From the NCBI GenBank assembly GCA_037917685.1, contig JAVCBU010000003.1:1941-65940 (forward strand): DNA of 64,000 nucleotides, in the 5' to 3' direction. The notes under the pieces are model-generated. The model searched no databases. It was not told the DNA's origin and worked only from the letters and a program-made list of their open reading frames with translations. Shown piece by piece: positions 1,337-62,273 of the stretch. Source of the stretch: Thermoproteota archaeon. GTDB lineage: Archaea; Korarchaeota; Korarchaeia; Korarchaeales; JAOZGB01. Numbering within the stretch: position 1 is the stretch's first letter; the number at the start of each line of letters is the position of its first letter. The position numbers and the translations under genes are program-made.

Positions 1337-1367
1337 TTACCTCATCACCCTGATGAAACCACCAAAA

Positions 1368-1889: not shown

Positions 1890-2513
1890 TTATTCGATTA
1901 TGGATCCTGCTATTACTTCTATTCCTTGTTGTTTTGCGTATTGGTATGCTTCTTTGTCTATGTTTACTGCTACGAGTATTATTTTCTCTGCCTTTCTTCC
2001 GAGGATTTCCTCTACTATTGGTGCTTTGACTGTTAGCCATGTTACGTGGTCTGCTTCTGCTCTGGATTTAACTTCTATTAGGTATAGTTTGTCGTTGTGT
2101 ATATAGACGTCTAGCTCTATGTCTGAGCCTTTCTTTAGGTATCTTCCGTCTACGTCTCTGTACTTGAACTTCTCCACCATTCCAGGCTTTATTCCCCTCT
2201 CCTCAAGGGCGTGCTTGTATATTGCCAGTACAGTTTTTTCGAGGTCTTTTCCCCACCTTCTTCCAAGGGAGCCTAATGCAACTTTAACTTCAGCCATGCT
2301 TGTTGTGAGTTCTTCGAGTCTTTTGCCCTGTTCTTCTAGTCTCATGCTTAGTTCTTCGAGTCTTTTGCCCTGTTCTTCTAGTCTCATGCTTAGTTCTTCG
2401 AGTCTTTTGAGTATTTCCTGTAGGCCTATTAGCCCGCTAACTATGTATCTGAACTCTTCGTCTTCCTTTAGTAGGGTTATGATTTTTGTTCGTATTGCTT
2501 CTTTACTATGCAT
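1890..2513 (-). CDS. Coiled-coil plus PD-(D/E)XK nuclease-like protein (DUF3782-like family, recalled from memory)
   Basis: 207-aa ORF. The N-terminal half is heptad-rich with the duplicated 14-aa unit LEELSMRLEEQGKR. The C-terminal half carries ELDVYIHNDKLYLIEVK, a D...ExK restriction-endonuclease-like motif. Confidence 0.55.
   Translation of the reverse strand: MHSKEAIRTKIITLLKEDEEFRYIVSGLIGLQEILKRLEELSMRLEEQGKRLEELSMRLEEQGKRLEELTTSMAEVKVALGSLGRRWGKDLEKTVLAIYKHALEERGIKPGMVEKFKYRDVDGRYLKKGSDIELDVYIHNDKLYLIEVKSRAEADHVTWLTVKAPIVEEILGRKAEKIILVAVNIDKEAYQYAKQQGIEVIAGSIIE
2308..2409. repeat. Perfect 42-bp in-frame tandem repeat (2 full copies plus 18 nt) inside the coiled-coil region of the 1890-2513 gene
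   Basis: agttcttcgagtcttttgccctgttcttctagtctcatgctt occurs at 2308-2349 and 2350-2391, with a partial third copy at 2392-2409. It encodes LEELSMRLEEQGKR twice. Confidence 0.9.
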
Positions 2514-2685
2514 TTCAATGAATATGTGTGGTTCGTGGTTTAAAACTGTTTGGGATGGCCTATACTGTGTTGTTTATTTGTATGTTTCATTTACTTAGTC
2601 TTGGTTTGTTTAGTCTTGGTTTTGGCGTTGTGGCATGTTAGCTTTCCACGTGGCTTGGGTGATGAAGTGTTTTGTGGTTTATACG

Positions 2686-3053
2686 CCTGGCTCCACCAGG
2701 CCGGGGACTCCAGGCTTGAGGGCTGGCATCACGTAGGCTTTCTCCTTAAGCGGCTTCCAGGTGATGTCTACCTTAACCTCAGCTATCCCCGAACCAAACG
2801 GGTATTTTCTAACCACGCTTTTGACGGGAAGCGCTGGATGCCCTAGTCTGGTTATCTGGGTGCATCCCTGGATATTGATTGTATCATAGATGCCTCTGTA
2901 CCCCCTTTCTCATAGTCGGCTTTGGATTTTAATGTTGAAAGTGTCAACGTTAAACTGGACACCTGTTGTGGGAAAGTACCCTACAGCACTTGTAGATAGA
3001 ATTATAAGTATACAAAAAGATAGAAGCTTGTAACCGTTGCCCGTTTGCCTCAT
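2686..3053 (-). pseudogene. Truncated, frameshifted 5' fragment of a second C25-peptidase paralog
   Basis: DNA at 2686-3053 aligns with 978-1336, the 5' end of the intact C25 gene. Translation gives MRQTGNGYKLLSFCILIILS...NVDTFNIKIQSRL, then a stop. A shifted frame continues ERGYRGIYDTINIQGCTQITRLGHPALPVKSVVRKYPFGS...LVEPGV, then a stop. Homology ends abruptly at about 2686. Confidence 0.8.
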
Positions 3054-3209
3054 AGAATCGGGGCCCCTACAAAATAAAAACTAAACCAATCTTATGACAC
3101 GCCTGCTCAAAGTCTATTGAACACCAACAATAAAACTTCAGCACGCAGGCTAGGACCCGCCTGCCTAATAAAGTTTATATTTATATTCAGCTCTACAATG
3201 ACGATCGGT

Positions 3210-4895
3210 ATGTCGTCTTACAGGAAGGTCTTACTGCTTCTTGCCGTGTCGCTTCTCCTCTACAGCGGTGTAGTTGCGGCGCAGCCGAGGCCGAAGGATG
3301 ACCAGGCTGAGAGGACAGACCTCTCTAAGGTAGAGCCACCTATACCTTTCCAAGCTGGAACAGAGCTGTGGGTAAATACGGATGTGTCCGAAGAGCCTGC
3401 CTACAGGTGTATTGCCACGGGGGACATAAACGGGGATGGGATATTAGATGTGGTTGTAGGAGACTATGGTTCCCCATATAATATTTACGTGGTGGACGGG
3501 TCGAACGGTGCAACCCTCTGGTCGACATCGCATTATAGCGATGATGTTAGGGCTGTAGCTATCGGAGACGTTGATGGTGACGGCGGCCTTGATGTTGTCG
3601 CTGCATGGGACGGCGTCGGCATGTTCTGCGTGTATGACGGTGCTACTGGTACGCTTCTTGATGCTCAAAACACTTTAGGCGGTGATGTGTGTAGTAAGGC
3701 TATTGCGGTGGGCGACGTTAACGGCGATGGGGACGCGGAGGTGGCCGTTGGAACTGAGGGCTATACATTGGAACTCTGGGACTGGCAGGCTGGAGGAATG
3801 GTGCTCCAGTGGAATGTTAGCTTTGGCAACCGGGTGAGGCCTGTCGCCATGGGGGAGTTCGACGGTGATGCTGGGCTTGACGTTGTCGCTGCCTCCGACG
3901 ATCTAACGGTTATGGCGTACGACGGTGACACCAACACCCAGCTTTGGGCTGCTCCGTACTCGTTCAATGACTGGCCTTGTTATGAGTTTGCCATCGGAGA
4001 CCTTAACGGTGACGGCTATGATGACGTGGTCGGCGGCGAGTACACTGGCATGGTGTTCGCCCTGAACGGCAATACCGGAGCTGAGTTATGGTCCTACAAC
4101 GCTACGGATAATGCTTGCAGTGTTTACGTGGGCGACCTTGACGGCGACGGCGATCTTGATGTTGCCGCTGGCGACTACGATGACTACATCTATGGCCTTG
4201 ACGGCCAGGCAGGTACAGAGCTCTGGACGCCCTACCAGGGGACGGGTGGTGCATCCTATTGGATGCTTGATGTTGTGGTTGGCGACTTTGACAATGACGG
4301 TTTGAATGAGATTGCTGGGGTCAGCGACGACTACAACCTTTACATTGTTAATGGGGACGATGGAACCCTATTCGACTCCTACGCGGCTACTGACGATCTC
4401 GAGTGCGCTGACAAGGGGGACTTTAATAATGATGGTGTTGACGACGTGGTGTTTGGTGGTGGTTCTCTGATTGCATATGGATTTCCTGCAAACGGCCGGG
4501 TGTTGGCTGGTAGTATTACGTTTACCCCTGCTTCACCTCAGCCGCCGGGGACGACTGTGACGATTGAGGCTGACATCCGCAACACGGGTGCAGTAGACAT
4601 TTTATGCGACGTAGAGTTCTACTATGATGGGAACCTTATAGGTACCTTGTCCTCTGTAAATGTTCCAGCCTTCAGCGATGTACATGTGAGCATGGACTGG
4701 GATACTACCGGAGTTCCCCCTGGAGCATATACGGTTGAGGTCAGGCTCACCAATATTGCCCCAAGCGACTGGGATCCAGCAGATAACTCCGAGACTGCAC
4801 CCTACACTCTCCAGGCTATACCTGAGTTCCTATTCCTCATGCTGGCTGCTCTGGCGTCTGCCATGGTTGCGGTGCTGGCTGCTAGGCGCAGCTAG
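3210..4895 (+). CDS. Secreted FG-GAP/VCBS-repeat beta-propeller protein with a CARDB-like domain and a PEF-CTERM-like C-terminal anchor
   Basis: The track ORF is 3117-4895. The likely start is ATG 3210 (MSSYRKVLLLLAVSLLLYSGVVAAQP signal). Repeated GDxNGDGxxDVVxG units occur (GDINGDGILDVVVGD, GDVDGDGGLDVVAA, GDLDGDGDLDVAAGD and others). CARDB-like TVTIEADIRNTGAVD. The C-terminus is IPEFLFLMLAALASAMVAVLAARRS. Confidence 0.8.
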   Translation: MSSYRKVLLLLAVSLLLYSGVVAAQPRPKDDQAERTDLSKVEPPIPFQAGTELWVNTDVSEEPAYRCIATGDINGDGILDVVVGDYGSPYNIYVVDGSNGATLWSTSHYSDDVRAVAIGDVDGDGGLDVVAAWDGVGMFCVYDGATGTLLDAQNTLGGDVCSKAIAVGDVNGDGDAEVAVGTEGYTLELWDWQAGGMVLQWNVSFGNRVRPVAMGEFDGDAGLDVVAASDDLTVMAYDGDTNTQLWAAPYSFNDWPCYEFAIGDLNGDGYDDVVGGEYTGMVFALNGNTGAELWSYNATDNACSVYVGDLDGDGDLDVAAGDYDDYIYGLDGQAGTELWTPYQGTGGASYWMLDVVVGDFDNDGLNEIAGVSDDYNLYIVNGDDGTLFDSYAATDDLECADKGDFNNDGVDDVVFGGGSLIAYGFPANGRVLAGSITFTPASPQPPGTTVTIEADIRNTGAVDILCDVEFYYDGNLIGTLSSVNVPAFSDVHVSMDWDTTGVPPGAYTVEVRLTNIAPSDWDPADNSETAPYTLQAIPEFLFLMLAALASAMVAVLAARRS

Positions 4896-4900
4896 CCCTC

Positions 4901-4918
4901 CCATTTTTCCCATTTTTA
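4901..4918 (+). terminator. Twin oligo-T tracts (cccattttt x2) immediately after the FG-GAP gene stop; archaeal-type terminator candidate
   Basis: T5 runs at 4904-4908 and 4913-4917, 9-20 nt after the TAG at 4893-4895. Confidence 0.45.
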
Positions 4919-5650
4919 ACCTGTGGGTTGCTACTTTATCTTTCCCCACTGTTCTTCCTGAATCCCAAGCTGAGCCTCAGCTATGGAGACAGTGTTAGAC
5001 TTGGAGGCCCTATGATTCAGCCTGATGCCTGGCGTATATCTCCGGTTAGGTTTCTCGTGCGAAGCGTGAAACGGTGGCTATTATGTGGTTGAGTGTCCTG
5101 TTGGAGCTGGGACGATAATATTTGGCTTATCATTGCATGATTAATTAGACTTCTGCGTTGTTAAAGCTGGTAAGAACGGCTTCTCTATGAACATCCGTTT
5201 AGGCGGTGTTGCAAGGTGTGGGGCTGAAGCTGGGCTTCTCTGGCTTATAGAAGCTTCCCAGAAGCTAACCTGTAAGTATACTAAAATGGGGGTGGATGGT
5301 AGAGATGGAAGAGGTACCTATCATCGCAGAAGAGGACTGAATAGGCTCAAAGATAAAGATGTGTCATCATCCCCTTTATTTTGGGTTAGGCAAGTATGGC
5401 TTTCTCGGCGGTTGTCAGCTCACACTCTTTACTATTTTAAACTTGTCTAATGGACCGGGATCTTTGCGGAAACGCCTACTGGCTGTAGGTTGCTGGCTTG
5501 CCTGTGATGCTGATGTGTGTTGGCCTGTAGAGTATCATATGGCTTTTTAATGTGTCCAGTATGTTATCTTGCCTACTTCAGCTTTTACAGGGTTTATTGA
5601 AATAGAATCCGGGAATATGCTGTAGAATAGGCCTCTATTCTTTTAGGAGT

Positions 5651-6055
5651 CTAAGAGCTGTATATCTTTTCGATTTCACGTATTATCTTTTTGTCTCCGG
5701 CTAAGACTAGGCCGAACGTCAGTATTTCCCTTATTATCCTTCTCTTCTGGGCTGCAAGCCTGTATAGCTCCCTCCTGGTGTAGACCCTTGGCTCAACATC
5801 CAGCGGGAGATCGGACACCATGTAGTCTTTAAGCCTCTCAACAGGGTTTTCGGGTACATCGTCGGACACTATTAGGAGGTCCAGGTCTGATAATGGCGTG
5901 TAGTCTCCCCTTGCAAAGGAGCCGTAGAGGATCACAGCGTCGGCCTTCCCCTCCTCGACAAGCCTTCTAGCATGCTCCTTGGCAAGCCTGAGCACCTTTC
6001 TAGGCTCTATCCTGTGCACCCTTACTCCTGCAGAATTCGATGATTTCCCTTGCAT
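5651..6055 (-). CDS. Minimal nucleotidyltransferase (MNT), antitoxin-type partner of HEPN
   Basis: Motif AVILYGSFARGDYTPLSDLDLLIVSDD (GS...D.D). The start is uncertain (ATG 6112, ATG 6055 or GTG 6019). The gene overlaps or abuts the upstream HEPN ORF stop at 6000-6002. Confidence 0.75.
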   Translation of the reverse strand: MQGKSSNSAGVRVHRIEPRKVLRLAKEHARRLVEEGKADAVILYGSFARGDYTPLSDLDLLIVSDDVPENPVERLKDYMVSDLPLDVEPRVYTRRELYRLAAQKRRIIREILTFGLVLAGDKKIIREIEKIYSS

Positions 6056-6400
6056 ATTCGATCGCCCTATCAGCGTCAACCCTGCTGTAATAGTCCATAG
6101 GCGTCCCCTCACTGTGGAAATTTGGATACCTCGTCGGTATATAATGCCTATCCAACTCCTTAGCCTTAGATATTAGGCTTTCAGGGACAGATATCTCATT
6201 TTGTAGCTGTCTCAGCATTCTAGATATAGAATGGCCCCAGACCTCCATGTTTCTACTCTCATACAGCGCCTTAACAGCCTTTCCAGCGGCCTGCTGGGCT
6301 GAAAAGCACGCCCACTCGTAATGCCCATTCTCCATTGACAGCTGGGCATGGAGAGATCTCTTAATGCTTGCCTCATCCAGTCCTTAGCTCTGGAAACCAT
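6000..6400 (-). pseudogene. HEPN-domain protein, reading frame disrupted by an apparent 1-nt deletion near 6345-6352
   Basis: The N-terminus MVSRAKDWMRQALRDLS is in one frame (ATG 6400). The remainder, AQLSMENGHYEWACFSAQQAAGKAVKALYES...IPTRYPNF, is in the -1 frame. Adding one nt after 6348 would give RDLSMAQLSMENGHYEW. Confidence 0.65.
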
Positions 6401-6745
6401 TATACTACATGAGATAATCCTCCTACAGGTTATATATTTATCGTTGCAACATTACGGGCCGGGAGGTCTAGTTGGTCGGCTGATCGGCATCGTATCCATA
6501 TTAAGGCTGGTAGGATGTCGAGCTTGAAGCTATTGGTTACGGGGAGCATTGTGCTTATGGGTTCCAGGGTATGCATGTTTTAGTATTAGGGTCGCTGCTG
6601 GCCCCACTAACTTGGTAGGATAGTCAGCGTGCGCTGTTTGGATGGGCTAGCTGTTTATCAGTGTTTGTTTTATTTAGCCCCTTGGCGCTTTATTCTTTGA
6701 CGTTGCTGTAAAATTTTGGATGTGCTGGTTTGTGTTGGTGTCTTG

Positions 6746-6759
6746 TTAAAAATTTATTA
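6746..6759 (+). promoter_or_regulatory. TATA-box-like element for the tRNA gene
   Basis: ttaaaaatttatta lies 24-37 nt upstream of the tRNA 5' end at 6783. Confidence 0.5.
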
Positions 6760-6782
6760 GGTAGCTTTGGCTACTCATACTT

Positions 6783-6871
6783 GCCCCGGTGGCGTAGTCT
6801 GGTAGCGCGGCCGCCTCGTATCCCGGTGGCTGGTGAGCGGCAGGTCGAGGGTTCGAAGCCCTCCCGGGGCT
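6783..6871 (+). tRNA. tRNA-Thr (anticodon CGU) with a 15-nt intron at the canonical 37/38 position
   Basis: Hand-folded cloverleaf. Acceptor GCCCCGG/CCGGGGC. D arm GCGU-AGUCUGGUA-GCGC. Anticodon stem GCCGC/GCGGC with loop CU-CGU-A, then the intron UCCCGGUGGCUGGUG (6821-6835), then A. T arm GAGGG-UUCGAAG-CCCUC. Discriminator U. The anticodon is at 6817-6819. Confidence 0.85.
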
Positions 6872-6878
6872 TTCCAAG

Positions 6879-7721
6879 CTATTGCGTGGCCGAGGGGTGC
6901 CACCATTTTTTACCTTTCTGCTCTTTGGCCTTGTCCCACTCTGAGAGTATTTTAACTGCTTCGCATGCTGTTTTTGCGGCTTCTTCCTCCCCCTTTACTG
7001 CGAACTTGTTTCTTACTCTGTCTGCGTATACCGCGCATATTGCCCCGGCTCTTAGGCCGTATAGGGATGCTAGGGTTAGTATTGATGCTGCCTCCATTTC
7101 GAAGTTTAGTACTCTCGCCCTCTGAAGATCTGGTATGAGATTGTCCATCCAGGACTGCCAGTACCCATTGTAGCCTGGCCTTGCCTGCCCGCAGTAGAAG
7201 GAGTCTGTGGTTGCGGTTATCCCCACGTGATACCTATATCCTAGGGTTTCAGCTGCTTCTACGAGTGCTGCTACCACCTCGTAGGATGCTACCGCTGGGT
7301 ATTCTATTCTGACATACTGCTTGGTGGTTCCCTCCAGCCTTACGGCTCCTGTTGTTATTATCAGGTCTCCGAGCCTGATATCAGGCTGGATTGACCCGGT
7401 GCTTCCCACTCTTATCAGGGTGTCTGCTCCTATGTTTGCAAGTTCCTCTACAGCTATGGCTGCTGCTGGCGAGCCTATGCCGGTGCTGCAGGCCGATATC
7501 CTAACCCCTCTATAGTAGCCCGTGTGGGTTAGATACTCCCGGTGCCTCCCTACAACCTTGTAGCTGTCCCAGAGTGAGGATATTTTAGGAACCCTGTCCG
7601 GGTCTCCGGGGAGTAGTACATACCTGGATACATCGCCGGGTTTAAGAGCTATATGATACTGTATTCTCCCCCTAGCTTCAGGCCTTATGGCGGACTTGTA
7701 CTCCACGTGGGAACCATGCAT
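6879..7721 (-). CDS. Nucleoside phosphorylase, PNP/UDP family (uridine phosphorylase-like)
   Basis: Motifs LLPGDPDRV, STGIGSPAAAIAVEEL, IRVGSTGS and FEMEAASI. Confidence 0.75.
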   Translation of the reverse strand: MHGSHVEYKSAIRPEARGRIQYHIALKPGDVSRYVLLPGDPDRVPKISSLWDSYKVVGRHREYLTHTGYYRGVRISACSTGIGSPAAAIAVEELANIGADTLIRVGSTGSIQPDIRLGDLIITTGAVRLEGTTKQYVRIEYPAVASYEVVAALVEAAETLGYRYHVGITATTDSFYCGQARPGYNGYWQSWMDNLIPDLQRARVLNFEMEAASILTLASLYGLRAGAICAVYADRVRNKFAVKGEEEAAKTACEAVKILSEWDKAKEQKGKKWWHPSATQ

Positions 7722-7811
7722 ATGAAAGTATTAAGTTTAACTTTTAAGGTGCTTGGTAGAGCCTAACCTTCGCTGGGGCAGACTATGGTACCCTCTACAC
7801 TGTCACCTCGG

Positions 7812-8690
7812 CTATCTTCCACCGTAGATTGAGATTGCTTTTGCCGCTACCCTGCATCCCTCCCTTGCCGCCTGACATATGTCAAGCCCTTTTAATCTCG
7901 CCGCCAGGTATCCAGCTGCAAAGGCATCCCCAGCGCCTGTTGTATCCACTACTCTATCAGGCTTTACTGCTTTCACCCTGCACGTCCTACGGCCATCGTA
8001 GGCTAGGCAGCCTTCTTCTCCCATTGTTATTACGACCTCGCCGACAAGCCTCCCCAAAATCTTCGCCGATTTTTCCACGTCTCTATCTCCCGTCAGTGCT
8101 TCCGACTCATCTAGGTTTAGAATCAGGATGTTAAATCTCGTGAAGAGTTTAATATACCATTCTCTCTCCTGTGAGAGTAGTGATGCTGAAGAGCCGTTTA
8201 TGGCTACGACAGCCCCACTTCTAACCGCCTCCTCCAGGAGGAACCTGTATGCTTCACCAGGCTTCTCAGAGTGGTATGAGTATGCCTGGAGGTATAGTAG
8301 CCTATACCTCCCAGCCTTCGATAAAGCGTCTTTCATCTCCTCCATGGTGATCTCATCGTTTGCGCCTCTTAGAGCTATGAGTGTCCTGTCTCCATCAGGG
8401 TGGATAAGAGATATGCATATACCTGTCGGCTTTATCCCCCTATATGTGATGGGTTTTACGCCCTCTCTTCTTAGGTCTGAAATATACTCCTCACCGTGGC
8501 AGTCGCTTCCCACCTTGCCTATCAATCCGACTTTTAGCCCAAGCCTTGAAGCCCAGACAGCGGTGTTTCCAGCTGCACCTCCGAACACAACCTTAATATC
8601 GGAGAAGATACTTTCACCCTTTCTTACCTCCCCTACAGGGACTATGACATCCACTAGAAGGTCCCCCGCCACAAGTAGGTCAAGGCTCAT
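7812..8690 (-). CDS. PfkB-family carbohydrate/nucleoside kinase (ribokinase-like)
   Basis: Motifs GGAAGNTAVWASRLG and DTTGAGDAFAAGYL. There is a 4-nt overlap with the upstream gene. Confidence 0.8.
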   Translation of the reverse strand: MSLDLLVAGDLLVDVIVPVGEVRKGESIFSDIKVVFGGAAGNTAVWASRLGLKVGLIGKVGSDCHGEEYISDLRREGVKPITYRGIKPTGICISLIHPDGDRTLIALRGANDEITMEEMKDALSKAGRYRLLYLQAYSYHSEKPGEAYRFLLEEAVRSGAVVAINGSSASLLSQEREWYIKLFTRFNILILNLDESEALTGDRDVEKSAKILGRLVGEVVITMGEEGCLAYDGRRTCRVKAVKPDRVVDTTGAGDAFAAGYLAARLKGLDICQAAREGCRVAAKAISIYGGR

Positions 8691-31086: not shown

Positions 31087-33759
31087 TTGACTGAAAGCAT
31101 AAAGTACGCAAGGGAAGAACTCAGCTTCACTGAAGCATTAGACCTCCTGAACCCTTACGTTTCGGAATGGTTTAGGCAGAAATTCAAGAGTTTAACCCCA
31201 CCTCAAAAGCTAGCCCTCAAACCAATCTCAGAGGGCGAAAACACTCTTATTTCATCCCCTACAGGAACAGGGAAAACTCTTTCAGCGTTTCTAATGGTTA
31301 TTAGTAAGCTTTTCGACCTTGCAGCCTCCGGGGAGCTTGAAGACCAAGTTTACTGTCTGTACGTTTCTCCACTGAAAGCTCTTGGGAACGACATTCATAG
31401 AAACCTGTCCGAGCCACTAAGGGAGATATATAGTCTAGCTTCTACCAGGAACTCCCAGCTCCCGATGATCAGACATCTCGTTAGAACTGGCGATACACCA
31501 AGTAGTGTTAGGCAGGCGATGCTTAGAAAACCGCCGCATATCCTAATCACTACGCCAGAATCTCTAGCTATAATGTTAAATGCGCCAAAGTTCAGATTCA
31601 AACTATCCGGGATCAACTGGGTAATAGTAGATGAGATTCACTCCCTATACGAGTCTAAACGTGGAACTCATCTTAGTCTCTCTCTTGAAAGACTCTCCAA
31701 CCTTGTCGATAAGGAACCTGTAAGGATAGGGCTGTCTGCAACCATACACCCGTTAGAAGAGGTTGCAAAGTTCCTCGTAGGATACAATGAGGATGGAAGG
31801 CTTAGGAACTGTGTAATTGTTGATGCAAGCTATGTTAAAAAGAAGGATCTCCTAGTACTGAGCCCTGTTGAGGATCTGATATACACTCCCGCATCAGTAG
31901 TGTCGGAGGAAATGTATAAGATGCTTCTATACCTGATTAGAAGCCACAGAACCACTCTGATATTTACAAACACTAGGAGTGGAACTGAAAGGGTGTCATT
32001 CCATCTTAAACACCTAGGAGAGAAGGCTACTCTCCTCGGGGAGGACGTTGGGGCGCATCATAGCTCTCTTTCACGAGACGTGAGGCTTGACGTAGAACAG
32101 AAGCTTAAAGAGGGAAAACTAAAGGCTGTGGTAAGTTCAACGTCCCTGGAGCTTGGAATAGATATAGGTTATATAGACCTTGTCGTTCAGCTTGGCTCTC
32201 CAAAGTCTGTTACACGATGCCTTCAAAGAGTTGGCAGGTCAGGACATAAACTCCACGACACTGTTAAGGGCAGGTTTATATGTATGGATAGAGACGACCT
32301 GGTAGAAGTAGCCGTAATGGTTAGAGAAGCATACCGGAACAGGCTTGACAGGACAAGGATGCCTAGAAACTGTCTTGACGTACTTGCCCAGCATATCGTC
32401 GGGATGGCTATCGAGCGTAAGTGGGATGCCATAGAGGCTTACAAACTGGTTAGGAGAGCATATCCCTACCGCGAACTATCCTGGGAGGATTTCGAGGAAG
32501 TGCTGAAATATCTAAGCGGCGGCTACCAGACGCTTGAGAAATTTAAGGTGTACGGTAAGATATGGTACGACCCGGAGGAGAAAGTATTCGGAAGAAGGGG
32601 CAAGTACGCTAGGGTAATCTATAGCCTTAACATAGGTACGATACCAGACCACGTCGCCGTAAAGGTCTACGGGGAGGACGGCAGCTACATAGGGAAGATA
32701 GAGGAGGAGTTCCTTGAGAGACTTGTCCCAGGAGACAGGTTTGTCCTTGGTGGAAAAGTGTACGAGTTCGTTAGGGCAAGGGGGATGAAGGCATACGTCA
32801 AGCCTGCATTCGACATGAAGCCGACAGTTCCAAGCTGGTTCTCCGAGATGCTACCTTTAAGCTTCGACCTTGCAATCCAGATCTCCAAGTTTAGAGAGGA
32901 CTACTTCAAGAAGCTGGAAGCTGGCATGGATGAGGAAGAAATAGAAAGATACGTGGAGAACTTCAGGGTTGAGGAGAAAGCAGCAAAGGCGATTCACAGA
33001 TACCTCAAGCTCCAATATCAATTTCTGAGATCCATTGGTGTCAAAAACCCAAGACCATATGCTAAAATCTACATTGAAAATTATCTAGACGAGTATGGAA
33101 GGAGAAACATAATATTTCACACACTATTCGGCAGAAGAGTAAACGACGCACTTTCAAGGGCCTACGCATACGTCTTGGGCAGAAAAATAAACAGAAACGT
33201 TGGAGTAACAGTGACCGACAACGGGTTCTCCCTAATAGTCCCAGCTAATGTTAAAATAGACTGGGGATTCCTTAGGGAAGTCACAAGCAAGAACATAAGA
33301 GAACTATTAGAACAGGTTGTCGGGAAAACAGAACTCATGGCACGCAGGTTCAGACATTGCGCGGCAAGAGCGTTCATGATACTCAGAAACTACAAGGGCC
33401 ACGAAATCAAGGTTAGCAGGCAGCAGATCAGCGCTGCCAAACTACTCGAAATATGCAGAGAGATACCTAACTTTCCAATAGTTAAAGAAACATTCAGAGA
33501 GATTACTGAGGACCTAATGGATGTCGAAAACGCTGTTAAAGTACTCAAAATGCTGGAAAGCGGGCGGATAAGTTTCCACCTGCTTCCAGAGCTGAGTGTT
33601 CCAAGCCCATTTGCGCATAACATAGTGTTACAAGGTTTATCCGATGTTATACTTATGGAAGATAAGAGATCCATGCTGGAAAGATTTCACAGACAGGTTC
33701 TATCAATAATTTCAGAGAAGCACGTGGTTAAAGGCCAACAAGCTATATCTCTCTCATAG
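31087..33759 (+). CDS. lhr: Lhr-family (Lhr-core, COG1201-type) superfamily 2 DNA/RNA helicase
   Basis: TTG start. Motifs SSPTGTGKTLSAF, VIVDEIHSL, LSATI, HHSSLSRDVRLDVEQKLKEGKLKAVVSSTSLELGIDIG and RVGRSGH. The long C-terminal region is DEAD-associated-like. Confidence 0.85.
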   Translation: MTESIKYAREELSFTEALDLLNPYVSEWFRQKFKSLTPPQKLALKPISEGENTLISSPTGTGKTLSAFLMVISKLFDLAASGELEDQVYCLYVSPLKALGNDIHRNLSEPLREIYSLASTRNSQLPMIRHLVRTGDTPSSVRQAMLRKPPHILITTPESLAIMLNAPKFRFKLSGINWVIVDEIHSLYESKRGTHLSLSLERLSNLVDKEPVRIGLSATIHPLEEVAKFLVGYNEDGRLRNCVIVDASYVKKKDLLVLSPVEDLIYTPASVVSEEMYKMLLYLIRSHRTTLIFTNTRSGTERVSFHLKHLGEKATLLGEDVGAHHSSLSRDVRLDVEQKLKEGKLKAVVSSTSLELGIDIGYIDLVVQLGSPKSVTRCLQRVGRSGHKLHDTVKGRFICMDRDDLVEVAVMVREAYRNRLDRTRMPRNCLDVLAQHIVGMAIERKWDAIEAYKLVRRAYPYRELSWEDFEEVLKYLSGGYQTLEKFKVYGKIWYDPEEKVFGRRGKYARVIYSLNIGTIPDHVAVKVYGEDGSYIGKIEEEFLERLVPGDRFVLGGKVYEFVRARGMKAYVKPAFDMKPTVPSWFSEMLPLSFDLAIQISKFREDYFKKLEAGMDEEEIERYVENFRVEEKAAKAIHRYLKLQYQFLRSIGVKNPRPYAKIYIENYLDEYGRRNIIFHTLFGRRVNDALSRAYAYVLGRKINRNVGVTVTDNGFSLIVPANVKIDWGFLREVTSKNIRELLEQVVGKTELMARRFRHCAARAFMILRNYKGHEIKVSRQQISAAKLLEICREIPNFPIVKETFREITEDLMDVENAVKVLKMLESGRISFHLLPELSVPSPFAHNIVLQGLSDVILMEDKRSMLERFHRQVLSIISEKHVVKGQQAISLS

Positions 33760-55085: not shown

Positions 55086-55748
55086 TTAGAATATGTAGGC
55101 TAAAGATACTGCTATACAATTGTTAATACAGTGGGCGGCTATAGAGAATGCTAGCCCTTTCTTATGATACCCGAGCCCTAACAGCAGGCCAACGATAAAG
55201 GCTGGGATAGCTCTCCATAACAGGTCTGGCCCCGCGTGGACAGCGCCGAAGATCGCTGACGCTACAAACACGCCGGGCAGCCCAATCCATTCAGTTAGTG
55301 TTTTTTGTAGGAAATGTCTAAAGAGAAATTCCTCACATATCGCGGTTATCAACCCGACGGTTAAGAGGTATAGCAAAAAGTCAACTGTACTCTTTGGTGT
55401 GAGAGCCTTTACATACCATTCAGGAATCTCGAATTTAAGCATGTAATGTAAGAAAACAGAGGTTGCTGATCCTATTGTGTAGGTGGCGAACCCGTAGAGG
55501 GAGCCAATTGTAATGTTCGCCAGTCTAAAGTTAAGTGGATAAAGAGGGCTTCTCTTAAGGATGAGGAATCTGCCTGACACCGCAAATAGCAACAGTATGA
55601 TCCCGCCTACAACGGCTATGCCTGGTAGATATGCTTGTTCAAGGCTTTCCCAGCCCATCTGCTTTGATAGGTAGTACTCTCCACCCCCTGATAAGGCTAA
55701 GGCTATAAGAACCCACAATACTGAGGCCAAAGCCCTTCTAGCATTCAT
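55086..55748 (-). CDS. CPBP-family intramembrane glutamic endopeptidase (CAAX protease/Abi-like)
   Basis: Motifs CEEFLFRHF, FGAVH and HCINN in a polytopic protein. Confidence 0.75.
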   Translation of the reverse strand: MNARRALASVLWVLIALALSGGGEYYLSKQMGWESLEQAYLPGIAVVGGIILLLFAVSGRFLILKRSPLYPLNFRLANITIGSLYGFATYTIGSATSVFLHYMLKFEIPEWYVKALTPKSTVDFLLYLLTVGLITAICEEFLFRHFLQKTLTEWIGLPGVFVASAIFGAVHAGPDLLWRAIPAFIVGLLLGLGYHKKGLAFSIAAHCINNCIAVSLAYIF

Positions 55749-55790: not shown

Positions 55791-57830
55791 CTACACGTTT
55801 CTCACAGAAACTACTCTCCCAGACTCCAGCTGTATATGAGTGTAACCTCCCGGAAGGAAGCCTGAGATGTGGGTGATTATAATTATCTGGTCATAGTACT
55901 TTGTAAGGTACCTTGATATAAGCCTCGCAATGTTTCTCCTCCTGTACCTGTCAGAAGACGCAAAAGGCTCATCTAGAAACAGAAACCTAGGTCTTATACC
56001 TTTCCTGGAGGGTAGAAGGGAAAGGGAAAATGCAAGCCTCATAGATAGTAGTAGCTGGTCCACCGTTCCACCGCTGAAAATGTTCCTCCTAAGATATCTT
56101 CCAGCCCTGCTATCCCAGACTTTGAGGTCGTAGTCCTCAGTTAGCTTAACATTTTTGTACCTTCCAGATGTTATCCTTGAAACTATTCTCGCCATGTAGC
56201 TCTCAAGAGGCCGAATAAACATAGTCCTAATGCTCCTTGAAACTCCGCCTATAACTTCTATCGTCTTATCAAAGGCCTTGCTGGTTTTCTCCAGCTCTTC
56301 AACGATAGATCTCTGGCTATTCAGCCTTTCATTCACGTCTGCGAGTTCCTTAAGCCTTCTCCTACCTTCCTCTATCTTTCTCCTGTACCCCTCTATTTCG
56401 GTGTTCAGCTTCTCCTTGTATCTCCCAAGCTCGAACTTCCTATCCCTATAATGTGTATAGGCTTTTTCAGAGTATTCTATTCCCTCCGGCAGCCGGGGAA
56501 GCTCTATGCCTCCAAGTTCGGAGTCAATCTTAGAAATTTCTTCGTCCATCCTTCTAATTTCCTCCCGGATTTCGTCCACCTCTATAGACAGGGATTCCAA
56601 TTCTCTTATAGCTCCCTCAGCCCTATGCTTCTCTTTCTCGATGCTCTCTATTTCGTCTTGAAGTTTCCTGTTCTTTTCTATCTCTGTGGAAAGCTTACTT
56701 TCAGTGGAAAGCTTTGACATTCTTTTCCTAAAAGTTTGGTGAAAGGATATTAGGGCAAATGGTAGAAAGAATAGTGCTTTAAGTCCGTAGGTGAGGAATG
56801 TTCGGAGAGCCACCAGTAGAATTATAACTGAGAAGCACAGATACGCTATATACGCTCCGTTTACTCTTGAAAGGTTCTTTTTCAGGTTTTCGATGTTCGC
56901 CGTTGTTGTTTCAAGAGTCTTCCTTTTGGTGTCGATAACCTTCGAAAGACCCTCTACTTTGGTTTGCAGCGTGTTAAGCCTTTCCCGGTCTTTCAACGCC
57001 TTTTTTAGTCTTTTTTCAGCCTGTTCTCTCCTTTTTTCCAAGAACTCCCTGCGGGTTCTTAGTTTATCTATGATATTCCAAACCTTCCTGTATTCATCTA
57101 AGGCTTCAAATATCCTTGTTACACTGTTAAACTCTGGTATAACCTCCTTAAGCTTTGATTCAGCCTCTTTTAGCCTTTCAGTCGCCTCTTCGACGTCTTT
57201 TTCTATTCTCTCCTTTTCCTCCTTGTCTCTCTCTATTCTTCTAAGCTTTTCTATCTCAACCTCAAGCTGTCTAATGACGTCCTTTCTCTTGTCTTTCAAC
57301 ATGTCTGTTGCCTTGTTGAAGCTTTCGAGGTTAAGAAATGCATTTATAACCTTTTCCCTGCTCGACCGGCCCATTTCGATTATTCTGTCCAGGTCTTTTT
57401 GGGCTACAACGTTGCTTGTAAGGATTTCGTCGAGGGTTACCCCGCCTATAAGCCTAAGTATCTCCTTGTTAACCTGGCTAACTGTGCTGGCTATAAGCCT
57501 ATTCTTGGGATCAATCTGCCAGAGAGTAGCTCTACTCCATCCTCTCTTTGATAGTTGTCTATTGACCCTGTACTTTTTCCCGTTTACCTCGAATTCAAGG
57601 GTTAGGGAGGATAATGTGGCAAAATGGTTTATTGCATCCTCTATTTTCGCTCCCTGACCATACCTCTTTTTAAGGATGCTACTACCATAAAGGGAGTAGA
57701 GAACAGCTTCTAGAATAGTAGATTTCCCAGCCTCGTTCTCCCCCGTTATTACAGTTACTCCCATTGGGAACTTTATGTCAACCTCGCTGAGAAGCCTGTA
57801 GTTTATAGCTTTCAAACTTATTAGCTTCAC
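55791..57830 (-). CDS. rad50: Rad50/SbcC-family SMC-like ATPase, short form without a zinc hook and with a central hydrophobic hairpin
   Basis: Walker A GENEAGKST. Signature FSGGTVDQL. Walker B FLFLDEPF. H-loop IIITH. Charged coiled-coil arms. Residues 326-366 (nt 56733-56855) read AYIAYLCFSVIILLVALRTFLTYGLKALFFLPFALISFHQT. There is only one Cys in the whole protein and no CxxC. Confidence 0.7.
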   Translation of the reverse strand: MKLISLKAINYRLLSEVDIKFPMGVTVITGENEAGKSTILEAVLYSLYGSSILKKRYGQGAKIEDAINHFATLSSLTLEFEVNGKKYRVNRQLSKRGWSRATLWQIDPKNRLIASTVSQVNKEILRLIGGVTLDEILTSNVVAQKDLDRIIEMGRSSREKVINAFLNLESFNKATDMLKDKRKDVIRQLEVEIEKLRRIERDKEEKERIEKDVEEATERLKEAESKLKEVIPEFNSVTRIFEALDEYRKVWNIIDKLRTRREFLEKRREQAEKRLKKALKDRERLNTLQTKVEGLSKVIDTKRKTLETTTANIENLKKNLSRVNGAYIAYLCFSVIILLVALRTFLTYGLKALFFLPFALISFHQTFRKRMSKLSTESKLSTEIEKNRKLQDEIESIEKEKHRAEGAIRELESLSIEVDEIREEIRRMDEEISKIDSELGGIELPRLPEGIEYSEKAYTHYRDRKFELGRYKEKLNTEIEGYRRKIEEGRRRLKELADVNERLNSQRSIVEELEKTSKAFDKTIEVIGGVSRSIRTMFIRPLESYMARIVSRITSGRYKNVKLTEDYDLKVWDSRAGRYLRRNIFSGGTVDQLLLSMRLAFSLSLLPSRKGIRPRFLFLDEPFASSDRYRRRNIARLISRYLTKYYDQIIIITHISGFLPGGYTHIQLESGRVVSVRNV

Positions 57831-58972
57831 CAGGCACCCCCCTCCCTAAGGGCTTCAAGGCCTATCTTTTTCGCCATAATGAGGATTTCCCTCTCCTTTT
57901 CGTCTTTCTCTTCAAGTATAAGTTTGTCAATATATTCCTGGAATGCTTTGAGGGGGGATGTGAACTTTACAGTTGGAATCTTCTCTTCCTGTGGTAGAAG
58001 GTCCGCATCATCCAGAATGAACAGGAAATATTTATCTTCATACTCTTTTAAGATGTCTTCCCTCCTGTAAGCGTCTATTACCTTTCTCGGCACGAACCCT
58101 GAGATCTTAACCTTAACCATTGCTTCGCTGCCGGTTAAACTTGTGAGTTTACTTCTTATGGCAGATTGGATGCTCTCGCTACCCTCAACTTTTATCTTAA
58201 CACTGATCATTGGCCTAGTTTTAACCTTGATGAATCTGACTTCTTTCACCCCGTTCTCGTCGAGGGTTAAGTGGACAAATCCCTTTTCATCATCGCATTC
58301 CCTAAAGCTTGTCCTTTCAGTACTCCCAGGGTAACATACGGTTGCACCTGAAACCTTGTCAACCTGGTGCTTGTGGAGGTGTCCTGCCGCGACATAGTGG
58401 AGCCCCCTGGGGAAGCTGTCTGCTCCTATTACAGGCTCAGACTCGTAATAGCTTGGAAAACCCTGGATATTACCATGCACCATGAAGATGTTAATGTCAC
58501 CGTCGGTGGGTATGCCTGGAATGCTATAGACCCCCGGCTTCCACCCGTGGGGGTAGGACATGCCTGAAACGCAGACGTAAAAGCCCCTAATATTCAACCT
58601 TTCATCTTCCACTTCATCCACTTTTTTGAACAGTCTGCCGTATCCTGCCTCCTCTATAACCGCTAAAGGGGATAAACCTTCGACTTCGCTCTTTGGGGTG
58701 TCATGGTGCCCTCCAACCATGAAGATCCTAGTGTTCTTGGTGATCATCCTGAAATATCTGAGAACCTGTGCTCTAGGCGGGTTTCTCGGGTTAATTCTAT
58801 GGTAGAGATCTCCAGAGATTAGGAAAAGATCCGGTTTAACCCTTAAAACATAGTCTAAAACCTCTTTAAAGCTCCTCCAGAAATCCCGCTTCCTGTCCAT
58901 AAGCCTATGCCTATACTTAAACGAATAGTCAAGGTGGTTATCCGCAGTGTGCACAACTGAGATCTCAGCCAT
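57827..58972 (-). CDS. mre11: Mre11/SbcD-family nuclease
   Basis: Motifs HTADNHLD, SGDLYH, GGHHD (a GNHD variant), VHGN and AAGHLH. There is a 4-nt overlap with the rad50-like gene. Confidence 0.8.
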   Translation of the reverse strand: MAEISVVHTADNHLDYSFKYRHRLMDRKRDFWRSFKEVLDYVLRVKPDLFLISGDLYHRINPRNPPRAQVLRYFRMITKNTRIFMVGGHHDTPKSEVEGLSPLAVIEEAGYGRLFKKVDEVEDERLNIRGFYVCVSGMSYPHGWKPGVYSIPGIPTDGDINIFMVHGNIQGFPSYYESEPVIGADSFPRGLHYVAAGHLHKHQVDKVSGATVCYPGSTERTSFRECDDEKGFVHLTLDENGVKEVRFIKVKTRPMISVKIKVEGSESIQSAIRSKLTSLTGSEAMVKVKISGFVPRKVIDAYRREDILKEYEDKYFLFILDDADLLPQEEKIPTVKFTSPLKAFQEYIDKLILEEKDEKEREILIMAKKIGLEALREGGAW

Positions 58973-58976
58973 GGCA

Positions 58977-60599
58977 CTACACCTCTGATGAGATTGTTCC
59001 AGGTTGCGTTTCTATCTCCGCCTTCATATCTCTTCTAGCCATCTTCAAGGCTTCAACAACATCTATGTCAGCACCCCCCTCTCTGGTGTTTCTCCTTCTG
59101 AACTTGACCATTACCGGAATCTTTGTAACCTCCCCGACTATTATCCCCTCCCCCGGGTTTAGGCCTGGGAGGTCCCTTAGGAGGTCGTCGCTCATCCGCT
59201 CGCTAGCCTGCCTTATAGCATTCTGATCATGTGGGTTAGTCGTTTTCATTACAATCTGGCTGTTACACTGGCTAAGACTGTCACTGTCAAGCTTGCAAGG
59301 CCTCTGAGTTATAAGTACAAGGAAAATGCCGAATTTTCTCCCCTCACTGGCTATCGTGTTTATAATTCTTCTAGTAAATGTTCTAACCCCTGACCTTCTG
59401 GGCGGAACGAAGGTGTGAGCCTCCTCCACGAATACGAAAACCGGATAGGGGAACCTCCCGGTTCTAACCGAGTCGTAAACCTCGCTTAGGATCCGGAAGG
59501 CTATATAATCCATACTCCTGTCCTCTAAGCCTGAAAGATCTATGACTGAGACATGCATTGGCTTTAAGATTTCCTCTATCGGAACTGACCTGTCACCGAA
59601 CACTTTAAGCTCGGTAAGCCTATACAGGTACTTTAAGGCCCTTGAAGCCGACGCCGACATTTCTTTCTTAATGTTTTCTCCGCCACTACTGATTCTCTCA
59701 ACCTCTTTATACAGGTCTCTGGGGGTATAGCTTACACCAGCGGCTCTAAGCCTTTCAAGAGCTTTCTTCAAAACCTCTCTTATCCTAGAATACCTTTCTG
59801 GTATGTTTGCTATCTCAAATATTTCAAATGGCCTAAGTTCCGAGAATTTAACAACATACTCTCTAAGATTATCTATGTCATTTTCGCTATACCTACCAGT
59901 ACTGTTAGGGTTTCTAAACACTGTTATTCGGTCATAATGTCTATACCTAGAATTGTCCGGCGTTCGGCTAAGGAAAACGTAGTCTGCGTGTGGGTCTATA
60001 ACTATTATGGTTGCACCCTTATCCAGAAGCTCCTCTATAAGTATTCCCGCGGTGTAAGACTTGCCGGCACCCGTCTGGGCAAGTATTGCAAGGTGCCTTC
60101 TTAAGCCGTTGATAGATATTTCAACTGGAACATCCTCCCTGAGGATTAGGCTCCCAACACGGAGGCCTTCTCCCTCAGGGTATGTGAAGAACTTTTTAAG
60201 AAGGCTGGATGGGGCAATATACACGCTACTTCCAGGGGTTACAGACCTCCTAGGCATCCTAACCTTTATTCTCCCGTCCTTTTCAACTATGAAGCCTAGG
60301 ATTTTTGCGTAGCCGACTACGTTTACATCGTCTATGTTGTAGTATCTAATTCTATCCACGGTTTCAACACTTGTATCCTCCGAGAGTACAAGGCTCTTTG
60401 AGACGATTCTTTTCACCTGTGAAAGCACGTAGACCTCTCTAAGCTGTCCGTCAACATACTCCTGTGACTTGACGATAAGATACTCGTGTTTAGCAGGATA
60501 ATTGTTTCTATAGGCTACAAACATGAACTCGTCACTGCTAGCCTCTCCTATAATTCTTCCAACCTCAGGGGTATCTAACACGCCTGTATCGCCTCTCAT
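58977..60599 (-). CDS. herA: HerA-type hexameric DNA translocase/helicase (DUF87 ATPase)
   Basis: Walker A AILAQTGAGKSYTAG. Walker B VFVFVEEAH. The N-terminal region is HAS-barrel-like. Confidence 0.85.
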   Translation of the reverse strand: MRGDTGVLDTPEVGRIIGEASSDEFMFVAYRNNYPAKHEYLIVKSQEYVDGQLREVYVLSQVKRIVSKSLVLSEDTSVETVDRIRYYNIDDVNVVGYAKILGFIVEKDGRIKVRMPRRSVTPGSSVYIAPSSLLKKFFTYPEGEGLRVGSLILREDVPVEISINGLRRHLAILAQTGAGKSYTAGILIEELLDKGATIIVIDPHADYVFLSRTPDNSRYRHYDRITVFRNPNSTGRYSENDIDNLREYVVKFSELRPFEIFEIANIPERYSRIREVLKKALERLRAAGVSYTPRDLYKEVERISSGGENIKKEMSASASRALKYLYRLTELKVFGDRSVPIEEILKPMHVSVIDLSGLEDRSMDYIAFRILSEVYDSVRTGRFPYPVFVFVEEAHTFVPPRRSGVRTFTRRIINTIASEGRKFGIFLVLITQRPCKLDSDSLSQCNSQIVMKTTNPHDQNAIRQASERMSDDLLRDLPGLNPGEGIIVGEVTKIPVMVKFRRRNTREGGADIDVVEALKMARRDMKAEIETQPGTISSEV

Positions 60600-61881
60600 G
60601 GGCTATAATTATGTCGAGTTCCCTTTCAAGGATTCTTTCGTAAATCCTGTCAAATACTCTTCGTGTGATCCTAACCCTACCATCAACCCTTGAGAGTAAA
60701 ACATTATAGTTTTTCGGTCCAGCATACATTGACAAAACAACTCCTAAAACCTTCCTGAAACCGTCAAGACCTGGATCCAGGGGGGTTAACCCGCGGATAT
60801 TGCTTAATTTCTCCTTTAAGCCCACAACCCACGCTGGAAGATCTATCCTTAAAGGTATGTCCCCTACGTCGGGGATTAAATACATGGTTATAATTGCTGG
60901 CATGTTTAGAAGCCGCCTAATCTGCTTTACAGCCCACCTAATATATGACTCGTCCCTTCCATGGATGCTCCGAGGAAAACCTGTTTTAATATAGCTTTCG
61001 GCCTTCCTAAGCCTATCCCACCTCTTAGCCATGTGCATCGTTAAGCCAAGTAGCAATGGAGTAGTGTAGCCAGGCTTTCTACTAACCATTTGTATAAGCC
61101 TAAAGTCTGGGAGGTGGCTCATATAGATGAGGAAAAGCTCCCTGAACCATTGCGGTGCCTCCCCAAGGGATTGAAGCTCCCTTAAAGCCCTACTTTTATG
61201 CATCTTAGCCTGAAACCATATACCTTTCAGTCTATCTTGAAGCTCGCCCGTGACTTCGCCTATTCTATGGTTAAATATCTGGTCTAAGACGTGATTTTTT
61301 ATGATCTGAGACCTGGAGTCCTTGCTGACCCCAACGGGCCATACGCCAAGCTTCATGCATCCCCTCATAAACCTCCAGTATGACTCTATAAACCTTAGAT
61401 GAAGGTCGAAACTGCCCTCAACAGGCATGTCCTTAGGCACATGTAAAAGCCTACCATAAAGACTTCCGTCTACAAAAACCAGCCGTAGACCCTCACCGCC
61501 GATTTCCCTGGCAGCCTTATATGCAGCCTTAAACTCCAAGTACTCCCTCCAAATCCCATAGTAAGACGAAAGCTGGGTAGACCCGCCGCAGTAGTAGAAC
61601 CTCTCAACATAGAGCAGGCGAACTGGCTCACCCCTGGTTGGAAGAGCCATAGCCCTTGAAAGATGAATAATAGAACCATCGGAAAGTCTCCTAGAAGCAG
61701 TACTACTATCAACAGCTACAGCCTCAAAAGATGAAGGCTTTAGGCTTGGGACCTCATTCCAACAGTCAGAAATAGCATGGCGGATATCATCTATAATAGA
61801 AAGTTCAAGAGATCTATCAGGCAGAAGTTTATCCCTATACTTCCTAATAAAATTCACAAATAGATCAATGAACTCAGGCAT
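60565..61881 (-). CDS. nurA: NurA-domain nuclease
   Basis: Motifs AVAVDSSTA and VFVDGSLYGRL (DxS/DGS-type NurA motifs as recalled). GGAGGGGAG SD before ATG 61881 (the track ORF starts at GTG 61902). Its 3' end overlaps the herA start. Confidence 0.7.
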   Translation of the reverse strand: MPEFIDLFVNFIRKYRDKLLPDRSLELSIIDDIRHAISDCWNEVPSLKPSSFEAVAVDSSTASRRLSDGSIIHLSRAMALPTRGEPVRLLYVERFYYCGGSTQLSSYYGIWREYLEFKAAYKAAREIGGEGLRLVFVDGSLYGRLLHVPKDMPVEGSFDLHLRFIESYWRFMRGCMKLGVWPVGVSKDSRSQIIKNHVLDQIFNHRIGEVTGELQDRLKGIWFQAKMHKSRALRELQSLGEAPQWFRELFLIYMSHLPDFRLIQMVSRKPGYTTPLLLGLTMHMAKRWDRLRKAESYIKTGFPRSIHGRDESYIRWAVKQIRRLLNMPAIITMYLIPDVGDIPLRIDLPAWVVGLKEKLSNIRGLTPLDPGLDGFRKVLGVVLSMYAGPKNYNVLLSRVDGRVRITRRVFDRIYERILERELDIIIAHERRYRRVRYP

Positions 61882-62273
61882 CTCCCCTCCAACAATACCC
61901 ACAAGAAAATATAACTTTTCATCAGCACTACAACCTACCCTATACTATAAGCTCAGGAAAGGGCCTTAATCTAACTCTACATACCAACTATAACATTTCA
62001 TCCTCAGACTGTAGATTGGTAGTAAAATACAGCCTCTCAGCCGGTTTGAGACCCTACCAAGAAGAGCAAAAAACGACTTGCCTATGAAGAGCTGAGAATA
62101 ATAACCCTCTAAATTATATCCAGAACAAAAGCGGAATCCCCAAGATAGTAAGGTGATGGTAATACTGTTATCCGTCACTACTACACTACTATTCAATTAT
62201 TCTTCATATAGTAGGTGTAGTCTGATGCTGTGCGGTATGTTTATAATTATGATCGGCTCATCCAAAGGTTGAT

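Follow-up and report, generated by a model that had tools for sequence, protein, structure and literature searches.

A putative membrane hairpin takes the place of the zinc hook in a Rad50-family ATPase of an archaeal nurA–herA–mre11–rad50 operon

The window, as we call the whole stretch of DNA analysed here, comprises 64,000 nucleotides of contig JAVCBU010000003.1 (assembly GCA_037917685.1, positions 1,941 to 65,940) from an archaeon of the Korarchaeia. On its reverse strand, to which all coordinates of these genes refer, lie four genes: nurA, the first of the operon (60565..61902; PF09376 NurA, E = 3.3e-12), the helicase gene herA (58977..60599; DUF87, E = 2.3e-39, with HAS-barrel and HerA_C domains), the nuclease gene mre11 (57827..58972; Metallophos, E = 2.3e-12, with Mre11 models as the best NCBIfam matches) and a gene for a Rad50-family ATPase of 679 amino acids (aa) (55791..57830, stop codon included). 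Domain matches in Pfam and NCBIfam bear out for all four the nurA–herA–mre11–rad50 context proposed in the original prediction, which had been made from the sequence of the window. The end of nurA overlaps the start of herA by 35 nucleotides (nt), and the GTG start of the ATPase gene and the TGA stop of mre11 share GTGA, an overlap that suggests coupled expression, with translation of rad50 tied to that of mre11. The zinc hook of Rad50 is regarded as a hallmark of Mre11–Rad50 in all domains of life. The ATPase of this operon lacks it and carries a hydrophobic hairpin in its place, which, to judge from sequence and structure models, probably inserts in the membrane.

By sequence and predicted fold, the two ends of the protein form an intact Rad50-type ABC ATPase head. 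The N-terminal half (residues 1–168; 57327..57830; predicted local distance difference test (pLDDT) score about 90 in the AlphaFold2 (AF2) model) holds the Walker A motif GENEAGKST (residues 30–38, nt 57743–57717) and the Q-loop residue Q144. The C-terminal half (residues 554–679; 55794..56171) holds the signature motif FSGGTVDQL (residues 585–593, nt 56078–56052), the Walker B motif FLFLDEPF (residues 616–623, nt 55985–55962), D627 of the D-loop and H654 of the H-loop; the three motifs had been read as intact, and are. Invariant positions in our alignment (A1) are G30, N32, E33, G35, K36, S37, T38 and Q144 in the N-terminal half and S586, G587, T589, D591, Q592, D620, E621, D627 and H654 in the C-terminal half. 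The profile of the family described below matches Rad50 of Methanocaldococcus jannaschii, Pyrococcus furiosus and Thermotoga maritima with E-values of 1e-43 to 1e-28 (4.7e-43 for the M. jannaschii heads in the PDB) and Escherichia coli SbcC with 3.5e-16, and every top Foldseek match is a Rad50. Rad50 models are also the best NCBIfam matches of the ATPase, led by NF003034 with 148.2 bits against a cut-off of 700; the three best-scoring reach 108–148 bits against curated cut-offs of 700–1000, and the alignment is limited to the heads and the first part of the arm. The model for the Archaea-specific SMC-related protein (ASRP, NF045487) gives 75.5 bits, under its cut-off of 300. The family departs from hook-type Rad50 and SMC proteins at three head residues: its Walker A motif reads GxNExGKS, where the others carry G in place of E, and its signature reads SxGTxDQ, where they have E for T and a variable residue for Q.

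As had been predicted, the ATPase contains a single cysteine (C332) and no CxxC motif, and a Pfam scan of the protein found no match to the zinc-hook domain PF04423. In the exact middle of the protein, residues 326–367 instead form a hydrophobic helix–turn–helix of 42 aa that is uncharged to almost uncharged. Its first helix, picked out by Hessa free energies and Kyte–Doolittle hydropathy, spans residues 326–346 (AYIAYLCFSVIILLVALRTFL; 56793..56855). The turn TYGLK follows (residues 347–351; 56778..56792; non-helical in AF2 at 348–350), and then a second helix of residues 352–367 (ALFFLPFALISFHQTF; 56730..56777), which runs into the net positive flank RKRMSK. Two hydrophobic segments on either side of TYGLK had been foreseen; the range then given for them, nt 56733–56855, is correct at one end and 3 nt out at the other. 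The Kyte–Doolittle maximum over 19 residues is 2.38, centred on residue 337, and the Hessa apparent free energy of insertion of residues 326–342 is −2.5 kcal/mol. When the protein was shuffled, an equally hydrophobic 19-mer arose in 333 of 20,000 cases, a weak statistic, so we relied on measures of the whole segment: an equally hydrophobic 42-mer arose in 22 of 20,000 shuffles and a 45-residue stretch with at most two charged residues in 4 of 20,000, which puts the chance of such a segment in this one protein at about 1e-3 to 2e-4.

Sequence searches show that the hairpin design is not a one-off and has been conserved in a family that numbers thousands. From 5.8 billion proteins we recovered 97 homologs down to E = 1e-31, all with a central hydrophobic stretch and none with a CxxC motif, and hook-bearing (CPxC) Rad50s enter the list only from E = 1e-26. 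An exhaustive profile search returned 3,597 cluster representatives (50% identity) at E ≤ 1e-30; among the best 150 of these, we inspected the 97 full-length proteins, 95 of which have the central hydrophobic segment, 95 the threonine of the signature motif and none a CxxC at the apex. The closest relative, in the metagenome-assembled genome (MAG) GCA_027492015.1, is 67–68% identical and fully syntenic. A homolog of mre11 lies directly upstream in nearly all archaeal and most bacterial relatives, and herA and nurA accompany it in many. The replacement of the hook therefore extends beyond this gene to the whole family, including long-public genomes such as that of the cultured Thermofilum pendens Hrk5, whose finished sequence encodes an 840-aa protein with no cysteine, annotated simply as an SMC/Rad50 ATPase, in the same four-gene cluster. 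Further cultured carriers with finished genomes are T. adornatum, in which the protein is labelled 'DNA double-strand break repair Rad50 ATPase', and Infirmifilum lucidum.

These findings bear on the suspicion that a frameshift, a misassembly or a wrong gene call hides a genuine CxxC hook. The source is the assembly of an uncultured organism, and the C-terminal arm of one relative, from a Thermofilaceae MAG, is indeed marred by a local assembly glitch. The gene in the window is, however, a single uninterrupted open reading frame (ORF) with both head halves in frame and with arms symmetric about the hairpin; an independent Logan assembly contig carries the exact HerA of the window, nurA, mre11 and, after mre11, the 679-aa gene; and the same architecture recurs in hundreds of independent assemblies and in the finished genomes of cultured Thermofilaceae. 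Because the architecture is conserved in finished genomes, we exclude an artefact, the probability of which we regard as negligible.

To characterize the apex we compared its composition in 90 members of the family. The segment has a median length of 45 aa and is centred at 0.501 ± 0.009 of the protein length. Charged residues make up 1.5% of the apex and 38.9% of the arms, hydrophobic residues 70% and 31%, and acidic residues are down to 0.07 per segment; the two flanks carry mean net charges of +2.2 and +1.3. The best 17-mers of the two apex halves have family-mean free energies of −1.5 and −0.3 kcal/mol, compared with +13.3 kcal/mol in the arms. In the alignment, hydrophobicity is kept across the apex and sequence is not, which is the pattern of lipid-facing helices. 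The mean Eisenberg hydrophobicity of 0.8 with a hydrophobic moment of 0.15 shows that the helices are not amphipathic and points to lipid exposure rather than to a soluble bundle.

The same data allow us to weigh another structural reading, that of an apex serving as a soluble hinge for dimerisation, where the hairpins of two Rad50 molecules would pack into a cytoplasmic four-helix bundle and make no contact with the membrane. In every Rad50 or SMC protein the apex serves dimerisation, and the MukB hinge can stand in for the hook; the second helix of the window protein is short and marginal, some relatives have 30–37 hydrophobic residues, AF2 confidence is low at the hairpin, and the Bacillus subtilis protein SbcE, to which we return below, has been seen as nucleoid-associated foci. 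Soluble helical bundles, however, are amphipathic, which the low moment at so high a hydrophobicity does not allow here, and practically no acidic residues and 1.5% charged ones occur across some 45 residues. Conservation of hydrophobicity alone, net positive charge on both flanks and the complete insolubility of the isolated central domain of SbcE likewise speak against such a bundle, which we judge improbable.

Several observations also weigh against a membrane-inserted hairpin. The case for insertion is built on composition. The second helix of the window protein has only 16 residues, includes P357, H364 and Q365 and has a marginal free energy of +2.5 kcal/mol, and R343 and K351 lie near the turn. 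The members with only 30–37 hydrophobic apex residues fall short of two full membrane spans. AF2 confidence reaches its minimum at the hairpin (pLDDT 55–65). SbcE fused to yellow fluorescent protein formed foci on nucleoids as well as at the poles, and the authors of that 2009 study never called it a membrane protein. Dimerisation within the membrane, discussed below, is conjecture throughout, and the family counts and the correlation of arm lengths carry no correction for phylogenetic relatedness. All computational tests that we ran nonetheless agree with the structural reading put forward in the original prediction, namely a true Rad50 head, a missing hook and an apex of transmembrane-like composition.

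Consistent with a hairpin at the apex of an antiparallel coiled coil, AF2 predicts long helices that lead to and from it. The model of the window protein (pLDDT 83.8) has one helix from residue 169 to 347, a turn at 348–350 and a return helix from 351; that of the T. pendens ortholog (84.2) has a 20-residue helix at 394–413 and, after a one-residue turn at 414, the return helix from 415. The outgoing arm thus comprises residues 169–325 (56856..57326), within the single predicted helix, and the return arm residues 368–553 (56172..56729), with helices at 351–415, 418–441, 455–495 and 499–553; the arms are about 155 and 185 residues long. Across 309 proteins, with kinship ignored, the distance from Walker A to the hairpin covaries with that from the hairpin to the signature motif (r = 0.94), as expected if the hairpin is such an apex. 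The protein had been described as about 200 aa shorter than archaeal Rad50; this is right when set against the NCBIfam Rad50 models (872–895 positions), and its own family is mostly 756–803 aa long, the clade of the window measuring 671–684 aa with matching stretches missing from both arms. The return arm is broken at residues 442–454 (LPRLPEGIEYSEK; 56469..56507), which are non-helical in AF2 and correspond to 583–605 in the T. pendens model. Conservation across the family is at least 90% at P445, L447, P448 and S454 in the break, and the facing arm (residues about 244–247) has its own near-invariant residues, L244 and Y247. The separation of the break from the head is fixed at about 80 residues, or roughly 12 nm, so that it may serve as a joint or elbow or as a site at which a partner binds.

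We propose that the hairpin inserts in the cytoplasmic membrane so that both arms, and hence the heads, Mre11 and HerA–NurA, would lie in the cytoplasm. It would span the membrane twice, with an outer turn of 1–5 residues; in members with only 30–37 hydrophobic residues, a re-entrant wedge would fit better than two full spans. At 155 residues × 0.15 nm, the arms would hold the catalytic heads, Mre11 and HerA–NurA up to about 23 nm from the membrane, and further away in longer-armed relatives. More speculatively, the two hairpins of an Mre11(2)–Rad50(2) complex might pair within the bilayer, which would give the apex the stable dimerisation otherwise ensured by the hook. The hook of Rad50 can be replaced by the hinge of MukB in yeast (PMC6969161), which indicates that the apex needs only stable dimerisation and makes such pairing plausible. 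In that case the membrane would be the site at which DNA ends are clamped and resected. Possible substrates are chromosomal breaks at the edge of the nucleoid and DNA on its way into the cell. Incoming DNA is suggested by the part that SbcE plays in competence, with its polar localisation in competent cells, and by the rad50 and herA-like genes in the DNA-import (Ted) loci of Thermoproteales. In its most far-reaching form, which we advance tentatively and with more doubt than conviction, the proposal is that the sole Mre11-partnered Rad50 of Thermofilaceae, Bathyarchaeia, Nitrososphaeria and the lineage of the window is an integral membrane protein whose transmembrane hairpin closes the ring by dimerisation in the membrane and pins Mre11–Rad50–HerA–NurA there.

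Whether this gene is the Rad50 of general repair is a question of role and not of structure. The gene might be a specialised paralog, an SbcE-like membrane module for incoming or foreign DNA, in a genome that encodes a canonical hook-bearing Rad50 at another place; a membrane hairpin would be in keeping with this. SbcCD and SbcEF occur together in B. subtilis, where SbcE acts in competence, and the head residues of the hairpin type (GxNExGKS, SxGTxDQ) are absent from hook-type Rad50 and SMC. The presence of rad50 and herA-like genes in Ted loci and a best PADLOC match to LmuB, the Rad50-derived protein of Lamassu (125 bits), are also in keeping with a special role. The operon argues otherwise: the gene, whose start overlaps the mre11 stop, fills the rad50 slot of the repair operon not only in the window but also in T. 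pendens and Bathyarchaeia and even in one Chloroflexota genome. HerA fits best as the repair type, with 222 bits for the NCBIfam model of HerA in double-strand-break repair and 105 and 91 bits for the models of anti-phage HerA; Mre11 and NurA match no PADLOC model, and the LmuA effector and LmuC are absent among the operon neighbours in the window. No relatives were found on phages, and the matches on plasmids were weak and partial. A tblastn search with canonical Rad50 found no second Rad50- or SMC-like gene within the 64-kb window; its match at 25.1–25.3 kb proved to be the ATPase of an energy-coupling factor (ECF)-type ABC transporter beside CbiQ. On balance, a specialised paralog appears unlikely, if less so than a soluble hinge. 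We also rejected the idea of a defence system, as the matches to LmuB, PbeC and JetC are explained by the common descent of Rad50 and SMC proteins, the partners are not those of such a system and phage relatives are lacking.

The partner Mre11 retains all four phosphoesterase motifs, HTADNHL (residue 8), GDLYH (54), GHHD (88) and GHLH (197). Motif III (residues 88–91) is canonically GNHD. The variant GHHD occurs in 10 of 56 partner Mre11 sequences, exclusively in the lineage of the window or at loci labelled Bathyarchaeota, Nitrososphaeria or unclassified archaeon, and GNHD is retained in the Mre11 partners of Thermofilaceae and bacteria.

More distant members of the family show the same genetic associations. 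Clusters of nurA, herA, mre11 and rad50 are found in uncultured archaea, Bathyarchaeia, Thermofilaceae and one Chloroflexota genome, and mre11–rad50 pairs in Nitrososphaeria and soil archaea. With two head-motif patterns we fished 79 loci from reference genomes of Chloroflexota, Actinomycetota, Bacillota, Gammaproteobacteria, Binatia and Methanobrevibacter; 71 of them encode a central hydrophobic hairpin, most with an SbcD/Mre11-like gene upstream. One Chloroflexota MAG (JAJPGV010000023.1, about 579–7842) has the complete archaeal-style nurA–herA–mre11–rad50 cluster with a 1,037-aa hairpin-type Rad50, which suggests transfer of the whole module between domains. Bootstrap support in a neighbour-joining tree of the heads is 84/100 for the archaeal family and 87/100 for this family together with the proteins of Chloroflexota and Rubrobacter. 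A single clade of all hairpin-bearing proteins, into which the tree had grouped them, by contrast received 0/100 and is contradicted by profile scores, and we withdrew that claim: Firmicutes proteins of the hairpin type score 60–140 bits against the archaeal family profile, under some hook-bearing Rad50s (205–228 bits). The shared head residues, three in number, speak for a single origin, an argument partly affected by the search itself, since the patterns used to fish the bacterial loci contained some of these residues.

Some further proteins were noted along the way. The MAG of a euryarchaeal methanogen, Methanobrevibacter sp. (locus 3867–7847), encodes beside mre11 a 1,322-aa hairpin-type Rad50-like protein with a hydrophobic segment at residues 614–657; this protein matches the archaeal family profile with 277 bits and yet falls outside the supported archaeal clade. 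Three Rad50-like proteins of about 801–811 aa (P0105, P0108 and P0112, the last from a 2-Mb contig of a 'Methanobacteriota archaeon') have an SGGE signature, one cysteine, no CxxC and no central hydrophobic segment, which by sequence looks like a third type of apex, hook-less but not of the hairpin type. In the Thermofilaceae MAG with the assembly glitch (L011; Rad50 ORF 4289–6895), a run of XXX in the C-terminal arm is flanked by a stretch of 27 residues that occurs in duplicate (RDLAVEVLKRVAARRRAAFAPSVENN), an artefact of assembly or masking and not biology.

Among the neighbours of the operon, a gene for a CPBP/Rce1-like intramembrane protease (55086..55748, reverse strand; PF02517, E = 5.6e-18) begins 42 nt downstream of the rad50-like gene. 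It was considered as a functional partner and rejected, as the adjacency is kept only in the closest relative, and it is probably not part of the system. Elsewhere, the window encodes on the forward strand a further DNA-repair gene, for a large Lhr-type helicase with DEAD, WH_Lhr and DEAD_assoc domains (31087–33759), and an 89-nt tRNA-like gene (6783–6871), for which ARAGORN gave a four-base anticodon and assigned no identity; the program, run with bacterial settings, probably misread an archaeal tRNA that contains an intron. Scans of the window for sigma-70 promoters and terminators were uninformative, the host being an archaeon.

The hairpin-type Rad50 of archaea is real, widespread and apparently undescribed for that domain. 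Full-text literature searches, which did not extend to the 2020 classification of ABC ATPases, the likeliest place for such an account, yielded none of an archaeal Rad50 that lacks the hook or is anchored in the membrane, in line with the original prediction. A 2020 review of Mre11–Rad50 coiled coils and hinges contains neither 'hydrophobic' nor 'SbcE', and its lone 'membrane' refers to ABC transporters. In public databases the proteins are labelled Rad50, SbcC, SMC-family or AAA ATPase, and there is no specific curated NCBIfam model, so the distinction between hairpin and hook is invisible in genome surveys of archaeal repair.

If the proposal holds, the zinc hook is not universal in Rad50, double-strand-break processing would be membrane-associated in these lineages, and the hairpin clade would be ancient and common to bacteria (Chloroflexota, possibly SbcE). 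The purpose of the hook is debated, with bridging of DNA ends between complexes on one side and closing of the ring on the other. The family is a natural experiment on this question, being a large clade that keeps the Rad50 head and Mre11, and in archaea HerA–NurA, with the hook exchanged for a hairpin; such an exchange is consistent with the replaceability of the hook by an unrelated dimerisation module (PMC6969161). It would add a spatial element, the processing of breaks or of incoming DNA at the membrane, and explain in structural terms the puzzling 'unique insoluble central domain' of SbcE from B. subtilis. Tractable carriers in culture are Thermofilum pendens, T. adornatum, Infirmifilum and Thermogemmatispora.

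Among known systems, B. subtilis SbcE (YhaN) with its partner SbcF (YhaO) offers a real parallel, as the original prediction had suggested. According to the 2009 study, SbcE lacks CxxC, has a deviant Walker A motif and contains a conserved central domain with a conserved proline, the first half of which is hydrophobic and completely insoluble; it interacts with the SbcD-like SbcF, has roles in the repair of double-strand breaks and in competence, and is found at the poles of competent cells. The same paper notes that B. subtilis carries both SbcCD and SbcEF. The likeness to the window protein, one of kind that rests on description and not on alignment, thus lies in the missing CxxC, the hydrophobic central domain and the adjacent gene for an SbcD/Mre11-like nuclease; unlike the window protein, SbcE coexists with SbcCD and has no HerA–NurA partners. 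The parallel is strengthened by SbcD-linked homologs in Firmicutes, which share with the window protein the central hairpin, the three diagnostic head residues and the N-terminal domain PF13514 (AAA_27). This domain scores 41–44 bits in the Firmicutes proteins and 26.9 bits in the window ATPase, against a gathering score of 22 and over residues 1–49 only; its InterPro entry bears the name of YhaN. A Brevibacillus locus considered as a bridge to yhaO–yhaN–yhaM was rejected, as its downstream gene is lipA and the yhaM neighbour is missing.

Lamassu LmuB resembles the window protein as a short Rad50-like ATPase without a zinc hook, and its PADLOC match extends over the full length. It works with LmuA and LmuC, whereas the window protein is accompanied by Mre11, HerA and NurA, and we know of no membrane hairpin in LmuB. 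The closest bacterial relatives are the hairpin-type Rad50 proteins of Chloroflexota and Actinomycetota (Thermogemmatispora, Ktedonobacteria, Caldilineae and Rubrobacter), which reach 280–363 bits with the archaeal profile. These uncharacterised proteins, which annotation names SbcC or AAA ATPase and nothing more, share the central hairpin and the upstream mre11 but are mostly longer, at 1,000–1,390 aa, with short proteins of about 650 aa in Rubrobacter. Finally, the canonical archaeal Rad50 of P. furiosus, M. jannaschii and Sulfolobus has in common with the window protein the head, the long antiparallel coiled coil, the overlapping mre11 and the four-gene repair cluster. It differs in its SGGE signature and GxNGxGKS Walker A motif, where the window type has SGGT and GxNExGKS, in arms that are each about 50–70 residues longer, and in the CxxC hook that stands where the window protein has its hydrophobic hairpin.

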